Virus record (IMG/VR): IMGVR_UViG_2634166457_000003
Coordinates: 1-18,720 of that record
Length of the DNA stretch: 18,720 nt
Strand: one strand, 5' to 3'
Source of the DNA: a virus
Lineage: Duplodnaviria > Heunggongvirae > Uroviricota > Caudoviricetes
Shown here: piece after piece, positions 1,517-15,698 of the stretch
Layout of the letters: each line of letters starts with the position of its first letter
Position numbering within the stretch: position 1 is the stretch's first letter
Notes under the pieces: model-generated
Seen by the model: only the letters and a program-made list of their open reading frames with translations
Told to the model about the DNA's origin: nothing
The model's database searches: none
Made by a program: the position numbers and the translations under genes

Positions 1517-1979
1517 TTCTCAATCTCTCGATGGCGCAGTGCAGCAGATGCCAGTTGTTCAGGCTGACGTATAAAGTATAAATAAACTGGTTCCAGTGTA
1601 AAGCCCCCACCTTAATGGAATAAAAACCAAACAACAGATTGCTGGGATACAAACAACGCTTATTATTAAAAGCGGTTAAACAAATTAAATTTTAATGTTA
1701 TGCAAATTTGTCAGATCACCATAATATCTCATTTGAAAACCGCTGAAATAACAACCCTATCAGGGTTAATCATATTAAGGTGAGTAAATATGGAAAACAA
1801 CAAATCTGCACATTACGTTCCTTTTTTATCCGTAATACTTTTTGTTTTATGCTGTGCGTGGGCATTATTTTTATAAAAATATTTACAGATGAAGTAAACC
1901 CGCCAATCAGGTTAACTGTGGCTGCGTTGAGGATGCATAATACATCAGAGGTTGCGGGGATTTCTCCCCGCTGGTCCTC

Positions 1980-2135
1980 TTACTCCCCAAGTTCGTAAGC
2001 TGTGAAGACAGCGACCTCCGTCTGGCCGGTTCGGATTCGTACCTCGCAGAGGTCTTTCCTCGTTACCAGTGCCGTCACTATGACGGTTAAACAGATGACG
2101 ATAAGGGCGATTAACATCGCCTTTTGCTGCTTCAT
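1980..2135 (-). CDS. Hok/Gef-family type I toxin, 51 aa (HokD/RelF-like)
   Basis: MKQQKAMLIALIVICLTVIVTALVTRKDLCEVRIRTGQTEVAVFTAYELGE: single transmembrane helix plus the conserved C-terminal CE.R.R....EVA..YE motif of the Hok family. AAGGAG sits 9 nt upstream of the ATG. The track ORF 1980..2192 is an in-frame upstream extension of it. Confidence 0.75.
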   Translation of the reverse strand: MKQQKAMLIALIVICLTVIVTALVTRKDLCEVRIRTGQTEVAVFTAYELGE

Positions 2136-2393
2136 AGCCTGCTTCTCCTTGCCTTTCGGCACGTAAGAGGCTAACCTACATTTGCTAGACATAGATTGGG
2201 CCTCAGATTAATGTTAAGCGTCTTGCAGGACGCGTAATGTTAACTGGGGCTTTTCTCTATCTGCCGTTGGTGGCATGCCCGAGGCAGATAGCCTCAAGCA
2301 CCCGCTGCAATTCTACTTAACTCTTCTTTTCCCGCAAACCGTTTTTATCCAGCACAGCAAATAGCCGCATTAAGCCAATGTTGTTCATTGTGT

Positions 2394-2573
2394 TTACCGC
2401 CAGTATTCAATACAAATGACCGCCATGAATACCCCTACAAAAAGCGCACTTATATGTCCAAATATTAATGTCAAGACATCAACTTCCTCCATCTCCTCCG
2501 CTGTTGCGATGATAGGTATACATGATGCAAACAACCAGATTGCAACAAATAAAAACTGCAATGTCTTTTTCAT
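2394..2573 (-). CDS. Small two-helix membrane protein, 59 aa, hypothetical
   Basis: Start trimmed to ATG (MKKTLQFLFVAIWLF...) preceded by GGGGGA; two hydrophobic helices separated by an acidic loop (TAEEMEEVD). Confidence 0.4.
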   Translation of the reverse strand: MKKTLQFLFVAIWLFASCIPIIATAEEMEEVDVLTLIFGHISALFVGVFMAVICIEYWR

Positions 2574-2688
2574 TATTCCCCCGACAATCAATGAGTAATA
2601 ACATTTAAACATAGATTGACATAATCAGACATAAAAATATCTGGCTGCACATTTTGCTTACATCGTGTTATAGGGAAGATTAAAAAAT

Positions 2689-3252
2689 TCACCGCAAAAC
2701 ATCCGCCGCGCTTACCAGTCCATTTCGCTTCAGGTAGTCCATCGCTTTATCCGGTAATTTGCAGTCCGACTTCACTTTCTTCAACTGGCTGACCAATTGC
2801 TTAACCAGCATGGTTAATTCATTAATCTGTTTGCCTGGTACTGGTGGATTGTCGGTTGCACCATGACTGGCAGTACAGTTAGCACTCCCTCCCTTCTCCT
2901 CCTGCAGCGGTTCAGGTAACGCTTCCAGTGATGTTTTTACAAACCACGCTGCCTGAACTATAACGCCATGAATCCAGCGCAAATCAGCATCGCGATCTTT
3001 CTTTTTCATCTTCTCGCCACTTAAAGCCTGGCTTATGTGACTGCGTACCAGGTCTTCATGTAACTCCTTCGCATCCTCAATGGTGAAACCACCAGGTAAA
3101 CGCCCCAGAGTTACCGGAGAGTTGCCAGCCTTGCGCATGGCAATTTCCACGATTTCAACCATATCTTCTGGTGGAATTTTACAATGCTGGCCAATATGCC
3201 TCTGCTGTCTGGCATACTCGAGGATGTGCTCCAGCTTGGTTCGATTAATCAT
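2689..3252 (-). CDS. Hypothetical phage protein, 187 aa
   Basis: ORF with ATG start overlapping the upstream stop (ATGA), consistent with translational coupling; no motif recognised. Confidence 0.6.
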   Translation of the reverse strand: MINRTKLEHILEYARQQRHIGQHCKIPPEDMVEIVEIAMRKAGNSPVTLGRLPGGFTIEDAKELHEDLVRSHISQALSGEKMKKKDRDADLRWIHGVIVQAAWFVKTSLEALPEPLQEEKGGSANCTASHGATDNPPVPGKQINELTMLVKQLVSQLKKVKSDCKLPDKAMDYLKRNGLVSAADVLR

Positions 3253-3728
3253 GATTTATCTCCCTTAAGCATGGCGGCGCGGCAGGCGTTAAGCGCGTTT
3301 TGCACGCGTTTAGCGTTCTGTACTTCGTATTTAGGTGCGGCTGCCAATGCCCATAGCCAACCAATTTCATAGCTATCAGCTTTTGATAGAGCACATTCCA
3401 TTTCCAGTGTTATTTTCTTAGGTACGAGTTGCCAATCATCTGGCACTACTGGCGCTGGTGCCCCAGACAGCAAAGCATCAGCCATACACATAGCTTCCAG
3501 TCCCGTAGCCTCCGCGATACCGTCACGAATAAGCTCAAGCCCCTCTTTTGTTAATAGTTTCATTCCTTTATACATGACGGGCACTAGCGGTTCTGTTTCC
3601 AGCGATGCCAGTGCAATTTTGAATAACTCACCCTCTACTCGTGCCACGCCTGAATTGGGATGGCATTTCGCAATCGCTATTTTTAATTTAGCTTCTTCAA
3701 TTAATTGTTCTTTTGTTAATTCAGCCAT
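3249..3728 (-). CDS. Hypothetical phage protein, 159 aa
   Basis: ORF in the operon frame series; Shine-Dalgarno weak; no motif recognised. Confidence 0.55.
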   Translation of the reverse strand: MAELTKEQLIEEAKLKIAIAKCHPNSGVARVEGELFKIALASLETEPLVPVMYKGMKLLTKEGLELIRDGIAEATGLEAMCMADALLSGAPAPVVPDDWQLVPKKITLEMECALSKADSYEIGWLWALAAAPKYEVQNAKRVQNALNACRAAMLKGDKS

Positions 3729-3821
3729 TTTTCACTACCGCCCTTTCAGGCGCTCCTGATGTTCTGAGGGTGCAGAAATCCCTCCGGTTAAGGATTAAAT
3801 TTTTAACAGTGCTAAATTTAA

Positions 3822-4178
3822 TTATTCAGTTCTGGATTTTGTCGCTCTGCGTATCCCCGCTTTTGCGTTACGCTCAATCTGAATTAACTTTTCTATATTT
3901 TTCCGCCTTTCCTGTTCCTCCTGGCGCAATAGCCTTACATCCTCTGCCAGTCTGGTTTCTCTTTTCGCCACAGAGAGCATCCAGCCAAACGGCTCCACAA
4001 CTGCACTGCAGATTTTACAGCGGACCTGACGCTCTTTTTCATCAACCCGGACAGAAGCGTGATGGCAATATGGTCTTTCCGATGGCTCATAAAGAAAATT
4101 AACCTGATTACGTGGGTCATCTTCTTTTACCGGAAATAAAACAATATTACTTAACTCATCTTCTGGTTTTATTTCCAC
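3822..4178 (-). CDS. Hypothetical Cys/His-rich (zinc-ribbon-like) protein, about 118 aa
   Basis: GTG start at 4178 preceded by AAGGAG with 6-nt spacing; alternative ATG start at 4211 would overlap the upstream gene. Motif PYCHH...CKIC. Confidence 0.5.
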   Translation of the reverse strand: MEIKPEDELSNIVLFPVKEDDPRNQVNFLYEPSERPYCHHASVRVDEKERQVRCKICSAVVEPFGWMLSVAKRETRLAEDVRLLRQEEQERRKNIEKLIQIERNAKAGIRRATKSRTE

Positions 4179-4179
4179 G

Positions 4180-4491
4180 TCACTCTCCTTTGATGCGAAT
4201 GCCAGCAACACGTAGTGCGCGCTCTAAATCAGCCAGATAAATCCAGCTGCCATTTTCCTTAGGTATCATGACATGGCGCTCATCAGCATTTATCGGGTGT
4301 CCATATCGAAGTTCATAGCCAGCCGGTAGCTGGACTTCCCTTGCCTCCAGTTCTGCAATGCGCTTGTCTTTGGCTTCCAGTTCATCAAGAACCTTTTTTA
4401 TGGCTGGTGAATGTGTCGCATAACTCGCAGCCGGACCGGCAAGCATTATCCTGAGCTGCGTTTTCGCTTTTTCCGTGTTCATTTGGTTCAT
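4180..4491 (-). CDS. Hypothetical phage protein, 103 aa
   Basis: ATG-initiated ORF in the operon; coiled-coil-like middle region (ELEAKDKRIAELEARE). Confidence 0.55.
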   Translation of the reverse strand: MNQMNTEKAKTQLRIMLAGPAASYATHSPAIKKVLDELEAKDKRIAELEAREVQLPAGYELRYGHPINADERHVMIPKENGSWIYLADLERALRVAGIRIKGE

Positions 4492-4506
4492 TACCTTATT
4501 TAGTGG

Positions 4507-4914
4507 CTATATTCCCCAATAGAACGTTAGTATACGCTGCATAACTTCGCTTTCCCGGCACTCGCTACAGATTATGTTCTGACGCCTGTCATAACGACGT
4601 ATTTCTCCGTCTGGTAATGACCAGATAAGGTCCGGATCAACCACAGATGTTTTTTTCTTCAGCTTTGCCCTTGAGAGTTTTTTGCGGGCATTTTGCCAGT
4701 CCTTACGAGCCTGTTCTGACGGGAATAACCCGTAGCCAGAGCTGTATACATCACCACTGACAACCAGCTCTCTTGCAAGAACGCTCATCAGATATCTTGT
4801 CGCACCTGTTTTAGCTTCCAGTTGCCGTAACGTCTCACGACCGCTCTGGCGCACGAGTTCCACCACCTGCCTTTTAATTTTTTCCCGCTCTTCTTGTGTA
4901 AATACTTTTGCCAT
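4507..4914 (-). CDS. Hypothetical phage protein, 135 aa
   Basis: Start trimmed to ATG (MAKVFTQ...) 8 nt downstream of GGAGG; basic C-terminal segment. Confidence 0.55.
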   Translation of the reverse strand: MAKVFTQEEREKIKRQVVELVRQSGRETLRQLEAKTGATRYLMSVLARELVVSGDVYSSGYGLFPSEQARKDWQNARKKLSRAKLKKKTSVVDPDLIWSLPDGEIRRYDRRQNIICSECRESEVMQRILTFYWGI

Positions 4915-4929
4915 AAGCGCCTCCGGCAA

Positions 4930-5691
4930 TCACTTTTCCGACACAATACGACTGGAGGAATCGACAATCTGTCGAACAATATCCCGGTGCTTGTTCAGCT
5001 CCCGTAGCGCGGCGCAGACTCGCTCCCACTTCTGGACATGACTTTTCGCCCGGCGCAGTTCGCGGTTTGCCATATGCAGCGATGGTAAAATCAGGTCATT
5101 GGCTCGCGTTTCAGTGAACGATGGTAGTGACTGCACAATGTCCCCCATAGTATCTGTTTTAATTTCTTCCTGTGTTGCCGCTTCCTGTGCTGGTAACGCA
5201 ACACCGGCTGGCTGAGGAAAGGCTTTACCATCAGTTTCCGCTACCGATGCAGCTTTCGGCTCTGCTGGTAAATTATCGCCCGGCATGCAGTAACGAAATT
5301 TACCGTTCTGATTAACGCGAATCAGACGACCTTTACTGATTGCCATTGCCAGCGTTGAAGCCACTTTGCGTGATGTGATGCCGAAAAACGTAGCCAGTTC
5401 ATCCGCCGTTTGTGGGCCACGTTGTTCAATCGTCGCAGTTAAATCGCACTCCGAAATTTTTGCGACTGTTGCCGTGGTGGTTTCTTCCGGCAGTTCTGCC
5501 TGCTCTGGCTGTTCCTGCTGAACGTTGTTATCAGCCACACGCCAGGTGTATACGCTTTTATCAACGAAACCAGCCTTTTTCAGTTCCCACAGCTCGTTCA
5601 GTACCTCTTCACGACTGATATCAAGTCGCGCAGCCAGTTCTACCGACGTGGCTTTTCCCATTGCTTTCAGTGCGTCAAAAACAGTCTCCAT
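4930..5691 (-). CDS. YdaW-like putative DNA-binding protein, 253 aa
   Basis: Start trimmed to ATG (METVFDALK...) preceded by GGGAGG; two winged-helix-like segments. Lies immediately downstream of ydaV, where K-12 Rac carries the ydaW remnant. Confidence 0.55.
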
Positions 5692-5713
5692 TAAAATTTC
5701 CTCCCGGTAAAAA

Positions 5714-6460
5714 TCACTTCGCAATTCCTGGCTGGACGACATTCGGACGCCAGCTCTCCCAGTTAAAATTCACCCAGCGTCCGCCGTTCATGGTCATGCG
5801 ATCCATAATCCGCTCGCCGAGCAATGTTTTCATCGCCTCATAGTTCAGGTTTGTCAGCATCCCCACGCTGCGCATCGACGCTGTCCGGCGATCAACAATC
5901 TGGTGCAGCACCACCTGCTCGTTTTTTGTCTCGCGCTGAATGCCAATTTCATCAAGAACCAGCAGATCCACTTGGCACAGTTCCCGCAAAAATTTTTCGC
6001 CTGATTGCCCGTCGTCATAGCTGGCGTGTAGAGCACTCATGACATCAGCCACGGTAACCACAATCACTGTCTGGCCATCTTTCAGCAGGCGATTCCCGAT
6101 AGCCGCCGCCAGATGGTTTTTTCCGGTACCAGGTTTTCCGCTGAACGCAAAATTTGTACACCCGGTCATCAGTTCATCAGCGATAGATTTCGCCTGGTTC
6201 AACGCGTATCGCTGACCGTCGTTCTGCACCTGGTAATTCGCAAACGAGCATTTGCGGTGCAATGGCTGGATGCCAGAGCGATTCAGAATTTTTTCCACCC
6301 GCAACTGACGATTCTGACGGTTGATCTCCTCACAACGTTTCTGGCCTTCGGAAAGTTGCCACTCGCGCCACTCCGCTACCGTTTTGAATGGGGCGGTTAC
6401 ATGTGGCGGGGCCAGTCTGCGGATACGTTCAAGAATGCCGCCTGCCGCAATATTTTTCAT
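5714..6460 (-). CDS. ydaV: DnaC/IstB-like AAA+ replication helicase-loader (YdaV), 248 aa
   Basis: Walker A motif [16 protein letters not shown]; length and sequence match the recalled K-12 YdaV; follows the O-like gene. Confidence 0.85.
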
Positions 6461-15322: not shown

Positions 15323-15517
15323 ATGCGGTATGAAAAAGTCAAACCATGTCCATTTTGTGGTTGTTCATCAGTAACGGTGAAAGCCATTTCAGGATATTAC
15401 CGAGCGAAGTGTAACGGATGCGAATCCCGAACCGGCTATGGTGGAAGTGAAAAAGAAGCACTCGAACGATGGAATAAACGAACCTCTGGAAATAATAATG
15501 GAGGTGTTCATATATAA
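15323..15517 (+). CDS. ralR: RalR (Lar), 64 aa; type I toxin with DNase activity and restriction-alleviation role
   Basis: Start trimmed to MRYEKVKPCPFCG...; Cys-rich motif CPFCGC...CNGC; matches the recalled K-12 RalR sequence and length. Confidence 0.85.
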   Translation: MRYEKVKPCPFCGCSSVTVKAISGYYRAKCNGCESRTGYGGSEKEALERWNKRTSGNNNGGVHI

Positions 15518-15698
15518 AATTACCGCCACTATTGAAAAGGAAGGAGGCACTCCTACTAACTGGACAAGATATTCAAAATCTAAACTAACGAAATCAGAAT
15601 GCGAAAAAATGCTCTCAGGTAAAAAAGAAGCAGGCGTTTCCAGAGAGCAGAAAGTAAAACTGATAAATTTTAATTGCGAGAAACTTCAGTCCTCATGA
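15498..15698 (+). CDS. ydaC: YdaC-like small protein, about 66 aa
   Basis: ORF overlapping the ralR 3' end in another frame; start uncertain (ATG at 15498 or 15438, neither with a clear Shine-Dalgarno); position matches ydaC of K-12 Rac. Confidence 0.5.
   Translation: MEVFIYKITATIEKEGGTPTNWTRYSKSKLTKSECEKMLSGKKEAGVSREQKVKLINFNCEKLQSS

Follow-up and report, generated by a model that had tools for sequence, protein, structure and literature searches.

Six genes in an early-right operon

The DNA analysed here (the window, a stretch of 18,720 nucleotides) contains six minus-strand open reading frames, g1 to g6, between a DUF1627 gene and a hok/sok locus. All six are present with the lengths given in the initial annotation, and the region is composed as follows:

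4930..5742, minus strand: gene for a DUF1627 (YdaW-type) double winged-helix protein (Pfam PF07789, 5.7e-97)
4914..4507, minus strand: g1, 135 aa, ATG start, GGAG upstream
4491..4180, minus strand: g2, 103 aa
4178..3822, minus strand: g3, 118 aa, GTG start, AAAGGAGAG upstream
3729..3821, minus strand: g3-g4 intergenic linker of about 95 nt, with AGGAG, a GC hairpin with GAAA loop and the start codon
3728..3249, minus strand: g4, 159 aa
3252..2689, minus strand: g5, 187 aa
2573..2394, minus strand: g6, 59 aa, GGGGG upstream
1980..2303, minus strand: hok/sok type I toxin-antitoxin locus, a neighbour outside the six genes

The tight junctions reported earlier were recovered as well: the end of g4 and the start of g5 overlap in an ATGA at 3252-3249, and the GTG start of g3 at 4178 lies one base past the g2 stop at 4180. 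Gene calls were compared with those of four further assemblies containing this DNA (L013, L014, L015 and L016, of which L015 is TA280). For L013, L014 and L016 the callers gave proteins of 135, 100, 118, 159, 187 and 59 aa plus a mok/hok product of 70 aa, the value of 100 aa for g2 resulting from a call at its second ATG. The calls for TA280 include only a 36-aa fragment of g2 and a g6 of 72 aa, and leave mok/hok uncalled.

The region belongs to the early-right operon of an intact Rac-like lambdoid prophage at ttcA, where it comes after the replication genes. The prophage lies next to ttcA, carries intR, xisR, recE, recT, kilR, sieB, racR and ydaS-V, and shows around 95% identity to the Rac-like prophages of E. 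coli. The DUF1627 gene, a backbone gene upstream of the six that is constant in sister prophages, is full length in the window and truncated in K-12. The earlier comparison with K-12, where the ydaW remnant is followed by rzpR/rzoR and then by trkG, proved right.

Family assignments of g1 to g5

Profile searches, which had been proposed for each protein, yielded a library match for g1 to g5 and left g6 alone without any. The genes had been described as unassigned, which holds for the function of g3, g4 and g5, whose PHROG families are all of unknown function, but not for their family, all being members of PHROG families. NCBIfam gave no match for any of g1 to g6. In Pfam, DUF977 in g1 was the sole match; nothing exceeded the threshold for g2 to g6, and no enzymatic domain was recovered. 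Searches of the PDB sequences with g1 to g5 returned chance-level matches only (E >= 0.1).

By its profile matches, g1 classifies as a DUF977/LygF protein of the Ren family, and as conserved backbone rather than cargo. The match to DUF977 was 3.2e-27 with 95.7 bits (gathering cut-off 22.1), and the match to PHROG 142 ('Ren-like') was 1.5e-42, where lambda Ren itself scored 1.6e-41. A direct BLASTP comparison with lambda Ren gave a weak but colinear alignment (8e-6, 29% identity over 59 aa) that spans the C-terminal ECRxSxxMxRxLxxY motif. In addition, g1 occupies the position of ren, the order being O-P-ren in lambda and ydaU-ydaV-DUF1627-g1 in the window. Given the PHROG and BLASTP matches, the lack of any recognisable lambda relative that was stated earlier is incorrect in the case of g1.

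The second gene is classified as encoding a short Ea22-like protein, which combines a predicted short coiled coil with a C-terminal domain whose last residues are AGIRIKGE. Around 20 residues of the coiled coil are left (KVLDELEAKDKRIAELEAREV), next to a 50-aa C-terminal part. The match of g2 to PHROG 250 (1.1e-17) is confined to profile positions 172-240; for lambda Ea22 this is the best profile, matched with 3.9e-63 over positions 72-240. Two colinear short HSPs connect g2 and lambda Ea22, one of them with the identical C-terminal octapeptide. The score against Pfam Ead_Ea22 (PF13935) was 15.9 bits, which is under the 27-bit cut-off. The Ea22 analogy for g2 is a weak and partial match. Proteins of the Ea22-like type have a three-part architecture, consisting of a modular N-terminus, a coiled coil that makes up more than half of the protein and a variable C-terminal domain, and are subject to mosaic exchange (PMC10834534). 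Both Ea22 and the DUF551 proteins have been described as mosaic, coiled-coil, tetrameric and prolysogenic (PMC10834534, PMC7093339).

The product of g3 is a conserved protein (phrog_1621) with a predicted zinc ribbon and a long C-terminal helix. It matches PHROG 1621 with 6.9e-53 and its gene is usually found directly after an Ea22-like gene. The 124 homologue clusters stem from Escherichia, Shigella, Klebsiella, Kluyvera, Erwinia, Pluralibacter, Salmonella and Morganella. The Cys/His-rich character noted initially is borne out by a conserved set of residues, of which C54 and C57 never vary and C38 and H40 reach at least 90% conservation; the C-terminal helix NIEKLIQIERNAKARIRRA is nearly invariant as well. 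In the AF2 model (pLDDT 72; strands 43-46 and 51-54, helix 63-117) the four conserved putative metal ligands are placed on two beta-hairpin knuckles, as in a zinc ribbon. A Foldseek search with this model against PDB and BFVD gave nothing at E <= 0.001; the best, non-significant fold matches were TFIIB-type zinc ribbons with an overlap of around 27 residues.

In the large majority of around 100 loci the linker between g3 and g4 shows 81-100% identity, regardless of the downstream gene; it is also a mosaic junction. Its hairpin is present in the MFE fold as well as in the centroid fold. We considered the hairpin as a terminator or boxB-like site and rejected this on account of the lack of a U-run, a whole-region z-score of -0.57 and stem changes that are one-sided only. 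Rfam gave no match at E <= 1 over 2300-5000.

Both g4 and g5 appear as composites. The former is a predicted helical chimera whose N-module (aa 1-47) is common and whose central and C-terminal part is rare. It matches PHROG 5117 with 1.9e-17, and PHROG 660 with its N part only. A tblastn search against phage records gave five matching records, and the segment 3290-3584 within g4 had no nucleotide match in any comparison locus. The latter is a predicted three-module helical protein, built on the scaffold common to DUF551/Eaa proteins and devoid of the DUF551 domain (PF04448), for which g5 gave no Pfam match and the segment is missing in the alignment with the homologues. Three PHROGs match g5, namely 924 (aa 1-125), 24004 (aa 1-48) and 660 (aa 138-187), and the phage tblastn search similarly gave separate matches for residues 1-48, 44-110 and 141-187. 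The 1335 homologue clusters of g5 have a nearly invariant core (49-112), combined with varied N and C parts that often include DUF551.

Considering this composition, g2, g4 and g5 might be decaying recombination scars, chimeric frames that are open by chance and specify no useful protein. PGAP labels a 92% homologue of g2 as N-terminally incomplete ('missing N-terminus') and annotates a 90% homologue of g5 as two separate, incomplete pseudogene pieces. Furthermore, in g4 and g5 unrelated segments are joined to parts of PHROG 660 (N and C), the exact cassette is rare (the exact g4 protein was found on 7 contigs), g2-g3 fusions occur (for instance P0001), and the all-helical AF2 model of g5 has a low confidence (pLDDT 47.7), which made it unsuitable for searching folds. 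On the other hand, every frame is intact, plausible ribosome-binding sites are present and the stop/start coupling is preserved. Positions 1900-5100 are 99.9-100% identical in three independent assemblies (L013, L014 and L016), and the aligned parts of TA280 and of one Logan contig show 99.8-99.9% identity to the region. Full-length 187-aa homologues of g5 were found down to 80% identity, with the near-invariant core spread over more than 1300 clusters, and for genes of the Ea22/DUF551 type the shuffling of domains has been documented as the normal condition (PMC10834534). We consider the decay of these three genes quite unlikely. Nevertheless, they could be non-functional chimeras, a point that counts against the explanation we prefer (see below), as PGAP calls homologues of g2 and g5 incomplete.

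g6 and the neighbouring hok/sok locus

A small two-helix membrane protein beside Hok had been noted initially, and g6 indeed shows two hydrophobic segments in its hydropathy profile. We classify its product as a small membrane protein with a putative lipobox and a predicted C-terminal hydrophobic helix. No match was found in Pfam, PHROGs, NCBIfam or PADLOC. The protein fits the PROSITE-type lipobox pattern with the Cys at residue 18 (LFASC in the window, VISC in a 47% allele of E. coli 83972), and the motif follows a basic N-terminus and a hydrophobic segment, as expected of a candidate lipoprotein. The three alleles (100%, around 77% and 47% identity) are all 59 aa long and share the invariant residues S17, C18, P20, I21, I22 and T24. 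The gene is intact in 80 out of 80 IMG/VR contigs. A g6-like sequence is located upstream of hokD in 1567 of the 5426 complete E. coli genomes (around 29%), with a DNA match of 84-86%, and is without annotation in all 30 complete E. coli records among the matches listed. A scan of GTDB species representatives recovered two Shigella flexneri genomes only and gave no cross-genus comparison.

An antisense ORF (2416..2598, plus strand) was considered in place of g6. It has no ribosome-binding site, a low-complexity product and radical replacements, and the g6 frame keeps its exact length and motif at 47% identity; the antisense ORF was therefore set aside. Comparison of g6 with the common allele gave a dN/dS of 0.34, where the antisense ORF shares the wobble positions. 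Given these shared positions and the open antisense frame, the two are inseparable by substitution counts. In some phage records it is the strand of this ORF that is annotated.

The gene lies 262-263 nt upstream of hok. The mok/hok ORF (2192..1980) matches Pfam HOK_GEF with 3e-23, and the sok region (2303..2130) matches Rfam sok RF01794 with 117.6 bits (gathering score 59). Homology to hok loci that lack g6 stops at around position 2350, and g6 moves as a block with the last g5 module and usually with hok/sok. It is improbable, in our judgement, that g6 is a genuine, largely unannotated lipoprotein-like membrane protein acting as a functional unit with the hokD-type hok/sok, and that g2-g3 are a two-protein host-targeting module in addition. 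In such a unit g6 might, for example, exclude superinfecting phages, or modulate Hok or confer immunity to it.

Slot variability, the question of defence and relations to known systems

The position of the six genes had been described as a variable accessory slot, and the comparison agrees: the content between DUF977 and DUF1367 differs in the window, MEI003, PF9285, LR-21-1 and K-12, and no complete E. coli genome holds at least 80% of the region from 5000 to 2300. DUF1627 and DUF977 were constant in the Rac-like prophages at ttcA that we examined. A single six-gene cassette was not recovered. Instead three units can be discerned, the backbone gene g1, the patchwork g2-g5, and a block of g6 with the C-module of g5. 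The junctions of recombination in g2-g5 map to gene boundaries and also to positions within genes. Other lambdoid prophages and 80 IMG/VR contigs repeat the order DUF1627 > DUF977 > Ea22-like C-terminus > g3 > g4 N-module > g5 C-module > g6 > hok, although individual modules may be missing. The Stx phage ArgO145 has, in its early-left region, an Ea22-like gene followed by g3, and later an HNH gene followed by a gene with the g5 C-module.

The hypervariability of the slot in Rac-like prophages is genuine, which supports the term 'accessory' and not the term 'defence'. PADLOC-DB 2.0 gave no match for g1 to g6 at E <= 0.1, and the proteins encoded in the slot of three sister prophages likewise had no PADLOC match. 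In a scan of 1800-5200 no sigma-70-like promoter was found on the coding strand, and no convincing terminator, with one weak terminator-like site (2710-2693) at the end of g5; the scan recovered fewer sites than were found in shuffles. The genes are packed, partly translationally coupled and part of an operon repressed by RacR, and look like early lytic genes rather than morons expressed in the lysogen.

The suggestion that the genes are candidate defence cargo is, in the absence of matches to PADLOC, NCBIfam or enzymatic domains and of a separate promoter, not supported. As a rival explanation, this view would have all genes, or a subset of them (for example g3 with g2, or g6), represent phage-exclusion, anti-defence or anti-host cargo in a hypervariable hotspot. 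Hypervariable slots are also typical of defence and counter-defence hotspots, and the slot content was different in each Rac-like prophage examined, with the whole region in no complete genome. Some of the neighbours have been linked with exclusion, hok/sok with that of T4 and Ren with the escape from Rex exclusion, and g6, as a small predicted envelope protein, resembles many superinfection-exclusion proteins. The strong conservation of g3 across genera fits as well and implies a selected function. Finally, small early phage proteins are a typical place for anti-defence or host-takeover functions, which makes an anti-host function compatible with the negative library searches. Against this stand the negative PADLOC results, the lack of a nuclease, NTPase, TIR, Sir2, protease or methylase domain in Pfam, and the failure to find an own promoter or terminator. 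Moreover, the genes lie on the same strand as, and are tightly coupled with, the early operon that RacR represses in the lysogen, and the same modules occur in the exo-xis/ea region of Stx phages, the setting of Ea22 (PMC7093339). We regard a role as such cargo as unlikely.

Based on the above, we favor, with a probability of roughly two in three (0.68), that the region consists of three units of separate history, the Ren-family gene g1, the 'ea'-type genes g2-g5 and the lipobox-bearing g6, and that it is not a defence system. According to this reading g1 and DUF1627 would be part of the conserved replication-module backbone, and g2-g5 would be 'ea'-type early accessory genes without a recognisable enzymatic domain, joined by recombination at short conserved junctions, for instance where the upstream gene ends with the codons for AGIRIKGE, or in the g3-g4 linker. 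The genes would be silent under RacR in the lysogen and, judging from the gene order, be co-transcribed with ydaS/T/U/V upon induction; g2-g3 and g4-g5, in which a stop overlaps or adjoins the next start, would be translationally coupled. Judged from Ea22, the one characterised relative, which acts on the phage's own lysis-lysogeny decision (PMC7093339), the products may be oligomeric helical adaptors that bind host or phage proteins. Such adaptors would tune the lysis-lysogeny decision or the host physiology, and would not provide defence on behalf of the host.

For annotation this reading means that the region should not count as a candidate defence island. It represents the combinatorial 'dark matter' that is usual in the early operons of lambdoid phages, and its first gene already has a name (Ren/DUF977). 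The comparison also shows that Stx phages, in their early-left region, and Rac/Qin-like prophages, in the region after the replication genes, draw on one pool of ea/Ea22-type modules, and it pins down recurrent junction sequences. The widespread g6-like gene beside hokD, for a conserved predicted small envelope protein, is mildly new.

Several known systems can be compared with the region. Like the lambda nin region (ninB-ninI), it comprises dispensable small genes between the replication genes and Q; unlike that region, and as judged by PHROG annotation only, none of g2 to g6 belongs to a family annotated NinB-NinI. Nin-type functional analogues, DUF1367 (PHROG 'NinB/Orf') and the YbcO nuclease, are found further downstream in the window. 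Like lambda Ren, g1 lies downstream of the replication genes in a pR-type operon, but it is longer (135 versus 96 aa), it is separated from the DnaC-like gene by the DUF1627 gene in Rac-like phages, unlike in lambda, and it matches Pfam DUF977, whereas lambda Ren does not. With lambda Ea22, g2 shares the coiled-coil end and the C-terminal AGIRIKGE; the Ead/Ea22-like proteins, however, are 182-344 aa long, compared to 103 aa and a very short coiled coil in g2, and Ea22 is encoded early-left, between exo and xis, whereas g2 follows the replication genes in the early-right operon. The N-terminal 110 residues of g5 show 88-95% identity to many DUF551 proteins of around 195 aa, and its C-terminal module is common to other DUF551/Eaa modular proteins, but a short linker takes the place of the DUF551 domain. 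Finally, g6 differs from Cor, Llp, Rz1 and SieB in that no sequence similarity was found between it and any described family, and is like them in being a very small predicted envelope protein with a conserved lipobox-type Cys.

Setting and extent of the six genes

An intact Rac-like lambdoid prophage adjoining ttcA makes up the window. In the closest complete E. coli genomes, which match ~84% of the window at about 95% identity, the gene order is intR, xisR, ralR, recT, recE, kilR, sieB, racR, ydaS, ydaT, ydaU, ydaV, DUF1627, DUF977 and, further along, DUF1367, DUF1364/YbcO and a Q-like DUF1133 protein. Over window positions 1900-5100 a contig of GCA_902842135.1 is 100% identical, and three further assemblies, including E. 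coli TA280, are 99.8-99.9% identical. As the initial annotation stated, all that lay between the ydaW remnant and rzpR has been lost from K-12 Rac. The RalA antitoxin sRNA lies next to ralR (window 15516-15694, minus strand; Rfam RF02694, 219 bits), so that in the window Rac's type I toxin-antitoxin pair RalR/RalA is intact.

The six minus-strand ORFs between the replication genes and hok are present with the lengths and start/stop details first described, and gene callers made identical calls on three other assemblies; TA280 differs for g2, g6 and mok/hok.

Small minus-strand genes of the window
4914..4507, minus: g1, 135 aa; ATG start, GGAG upstream
4491..4180, minus: g2, 103 aa; ATG start
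4178..3822, minus: g3, 118 aa; GTG start 1 base past the g2 stop, AAAGGAGAG upstream
3728..3249, minus: g4, 159 aa; ATG start
3252..2689, minus: g5, 187 aa; start in an ATGA overlap with g4
2573..2394, minus: g6, 59 aa; ATG start, GGGGG upstream

The description of these genes was largely correct, except that 'unassigned' is too strong. Recognisable similarity, which had been denied, exists for g1 (DUF977/Ren profile) and for g2, which falls in PHROG 250 together with Ea22. For g1, Pfam DUF977 matches at 3.2e-27 and PHROG 142 ('Ren-like exclusion protein') at 1.5e-42, the latter profile also matching lambda Ren (1.6e-41); direct alignment of g1 with lambda Ren gives 8e-6, via a C-terminal ECRxSxxMxRxLxxY motif. 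In phage records the gene is named LygF. In lambda ren directly follows O and P, whereas g1 follows the genes for YdaU, YdaV and DUF1627. Given that DUF1627 and DUF977 are kept in every Rac-like prophage examined while the downstream content changes, and considering its position after the replication genes, g1 belongs to the conserved replication-proximal backbone.

Composition of g2-g5

The match of g2 to PHROG 250 (1.1e-17) connects it to lambda Ea22, for which this is also the best profile (3.9e-63); the two have the last part of the coiled coil in common, and both finish in AGIRIKGE. The g2 protein is short and stays under the cut-off of Pfam Ead_Ea22, and a 92% homologue is annotated by PGAP as N-terminally incomplete. 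The last 10 codons of g2 (…RVAGIRIKGE; window 4180-4210, minus strand) travel with g3 as part of the g3 module: compared with loci that have another upstream gene, homology starts at about 4206-4213, and in LZHX12 the DUF977 gene itself continues into the AGIRIKGE tail, overlapping g3 by 23 nt.

The best-defined protein among the six is g3, which is matched by PHROG 1621 (6.9e-53) and has homologues in 124 clusters from at least 8 enterobacterial genera. The homologue alignment shows C38, H40, C54 and C57 conserved and hardly any variation in the C-terminal helix; in the AF2 model (pLDDT 72) a small ribbon leads into a helix of 55 residues, with no significant fold neighbours. As a rule the gene comes directly after an Ea22-like gene, which it overlaps slightly, both behind the replication genes (E. 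coli strain 7/2) and in Stx phage ArgO145 (early-left region). The same adjacency is seen in database proteins in which Ea22, DUF977 or DUF1627 is fused or misjoined to g3. One such entry, P0001 of Escherichia marmotae (202 aa, 96% identity, annotated 'ead/Ea22-like family protein'), is a g2-g3 fusion that may stem from a one-base change at the g2 stop/g3 start junction or from a sequencing error.

Judged by their sequence matches, g4 and g5 are both chimeras. PHROG 660 is split between them, its N part matching g4 residues 1-98 and its C part g5 residues 138-187. Segments 1-48, 44-110 and 141-187 of g5 each match different phage genes, and in the homologue alignment a nearly invariant core (49-112) is combined with a wide variety of N and C parts. 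The homologues often carry a DUF551 domain, which g5 lacks; PGAP annotates a 90% homologue as two incomplete pieces. The centre of g4 (window 3290-3584) has no match in any comparison locus. Nucleotide junctions lie approximately at 2350, 2689, 2822-2873, 2924, 3126, 3290, 3584-3589, 3730, 4206-4213, 4365, 4501-4519 and 4924, partly at gene ends and partly inside genes. The picture for g2-g5 is that of a mosaic of ea-type modules.

The g3-g4 spacer (window 3729-3821, minus strand; about 93-95 nt) is 81-100% conserved in the great majority of ~100 fetched lambdoid loci, independent of which gene comes next. It contains AGGAG and a GC hairpin with a GAAA loop, with the start codon 9-12 nt on; no U-run or Rfam match was found and the folding energy of the whole region is not significant (z-score -0.57). 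The spacer may be mere module-junction sequence, or its hairpin could bring a distant Shine-Dalgarno within reach of the start codon.

The g6 gene and hok/sok

No match to g6 was found in Pfam, PHROGs, NCBIfam or PADLOC. After a basic N-terminus, a hydrophobic segment runs to LFASC, in keeping with the lipobox pattern, and is followed by an acidic loop and another hydrophobic helix. Its exact sequence is RefSeq WP_024211701.1, whose five-member cluster was the only match in a word-indexed search of 5.8 billion proteins; a full HMMER scan added two allele groups, at ~76% and 47% (E. coli 83972), the latter also 59 aa long. S17, C18, P20, I21, I22 and T24 are invariant across alleles. Compared with the common allele, g6 has no indels, several occurring in the flanks, and its dN/dS of 0.34 is not decisive by itself because an antisense ORF (window 2416-2598, plus strand, 60 aa) shares its wobble positions and stays open in all alleles. 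The g6 frame is favoured as the putative coding one, because its length and motif persist in the 47% allele, a ribosome-binding site precedes it and replacements within the hydrophobic segments are conservative. The antisense ORF, annotated instead of g6 in some phage records as 'hornerin' or hypothetical, is a likely source of mis-annotation.

Of 5426 complete E. coli genomes, 1567 have a g6-like 59-aa ORF upstream of hokD, with 84-86% nucleotide identity; it is unannotated in the 30 records listed among these 1567. In 80 IMG/VR contigs g6 is always intact (80/80) and preceded by a gene with the g5 C-module end, with hok 262-263 nt downstream in 60 of the 80. Loci with hok and no g6 also exist, their homology to the window ending at ~2350; the sok region lies at 2130-2303 (Rfam). 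As a small annotation gap, g6 deserves mention.

The variable slot and the defence question

That this is a variable slot was confirmed, and it is hypervariable: the content between DUF977 and DUF1367 differs between the window and the sister prophages of LR-21-1 and of E. coli MEI003 and PF9285.

Content of the slot in four Rac-like prophages
Window: g2-g6 and hok/sok
MEI003: two small minus-strand genes, two plus-strand hypothetical genes, hok
PF9285: beta-flower protein, 471-aa hypothetical, DUF1971 gene
LR-21-1: 269-aa plus-strand gene, DUF1971

In MEI003 (locus L001, 3046-4529, plus strand) two overlapping genes of 310 and 184 aa run opposite to the operon; neither has a Pfam or PADLOC match, and the layout of the pair is more suggestive of morons than that of any gene in the window. 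In PF9285 (locus L009, 3233-5065, minus strand) a 4-fold beta-flower protein (PF21784, 4.4e-24) lies beside the 471-aa protein, which has no family match; hok is absent there and a DUF1971/TehB-like gene present.

The reading of the six genes as a single cassette and as defence cargo is not supported, as g1 is backbone, g2-g5 are mosaic, and PADLOC gave no match for g1-g6, nor for the slot proteins of the three sister prophages. Within g2-g6 we found no recognisable enzymatic domain, no promoter-like site on their own strand and no convincing terminator; the genes are packed and partly coupled inside the RacR-repressed operon. Stx phages have the same modules in their exo-xis/ea region, where Ea22, the sole studied relative, influences the developmental choice of the phage itself (PMC7093339). 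Based on the above, we take g2-g5 to be ordinary early accessory genes, probably encoding oligomeric adaptors, and infer that they do not form a host-protective system; an anti-defence or host-takeover role may exist. What is new here is a combination of phage families already known, with function unassigned, and novelty is low. Ea22 and its DUF551-bearing variants have been described as mosaic, coiled-coil, oligomeric, early-expressed and prolysogenic (PMC10834534, PMC7093339), a description that the mosaic of g2-g5 fits.
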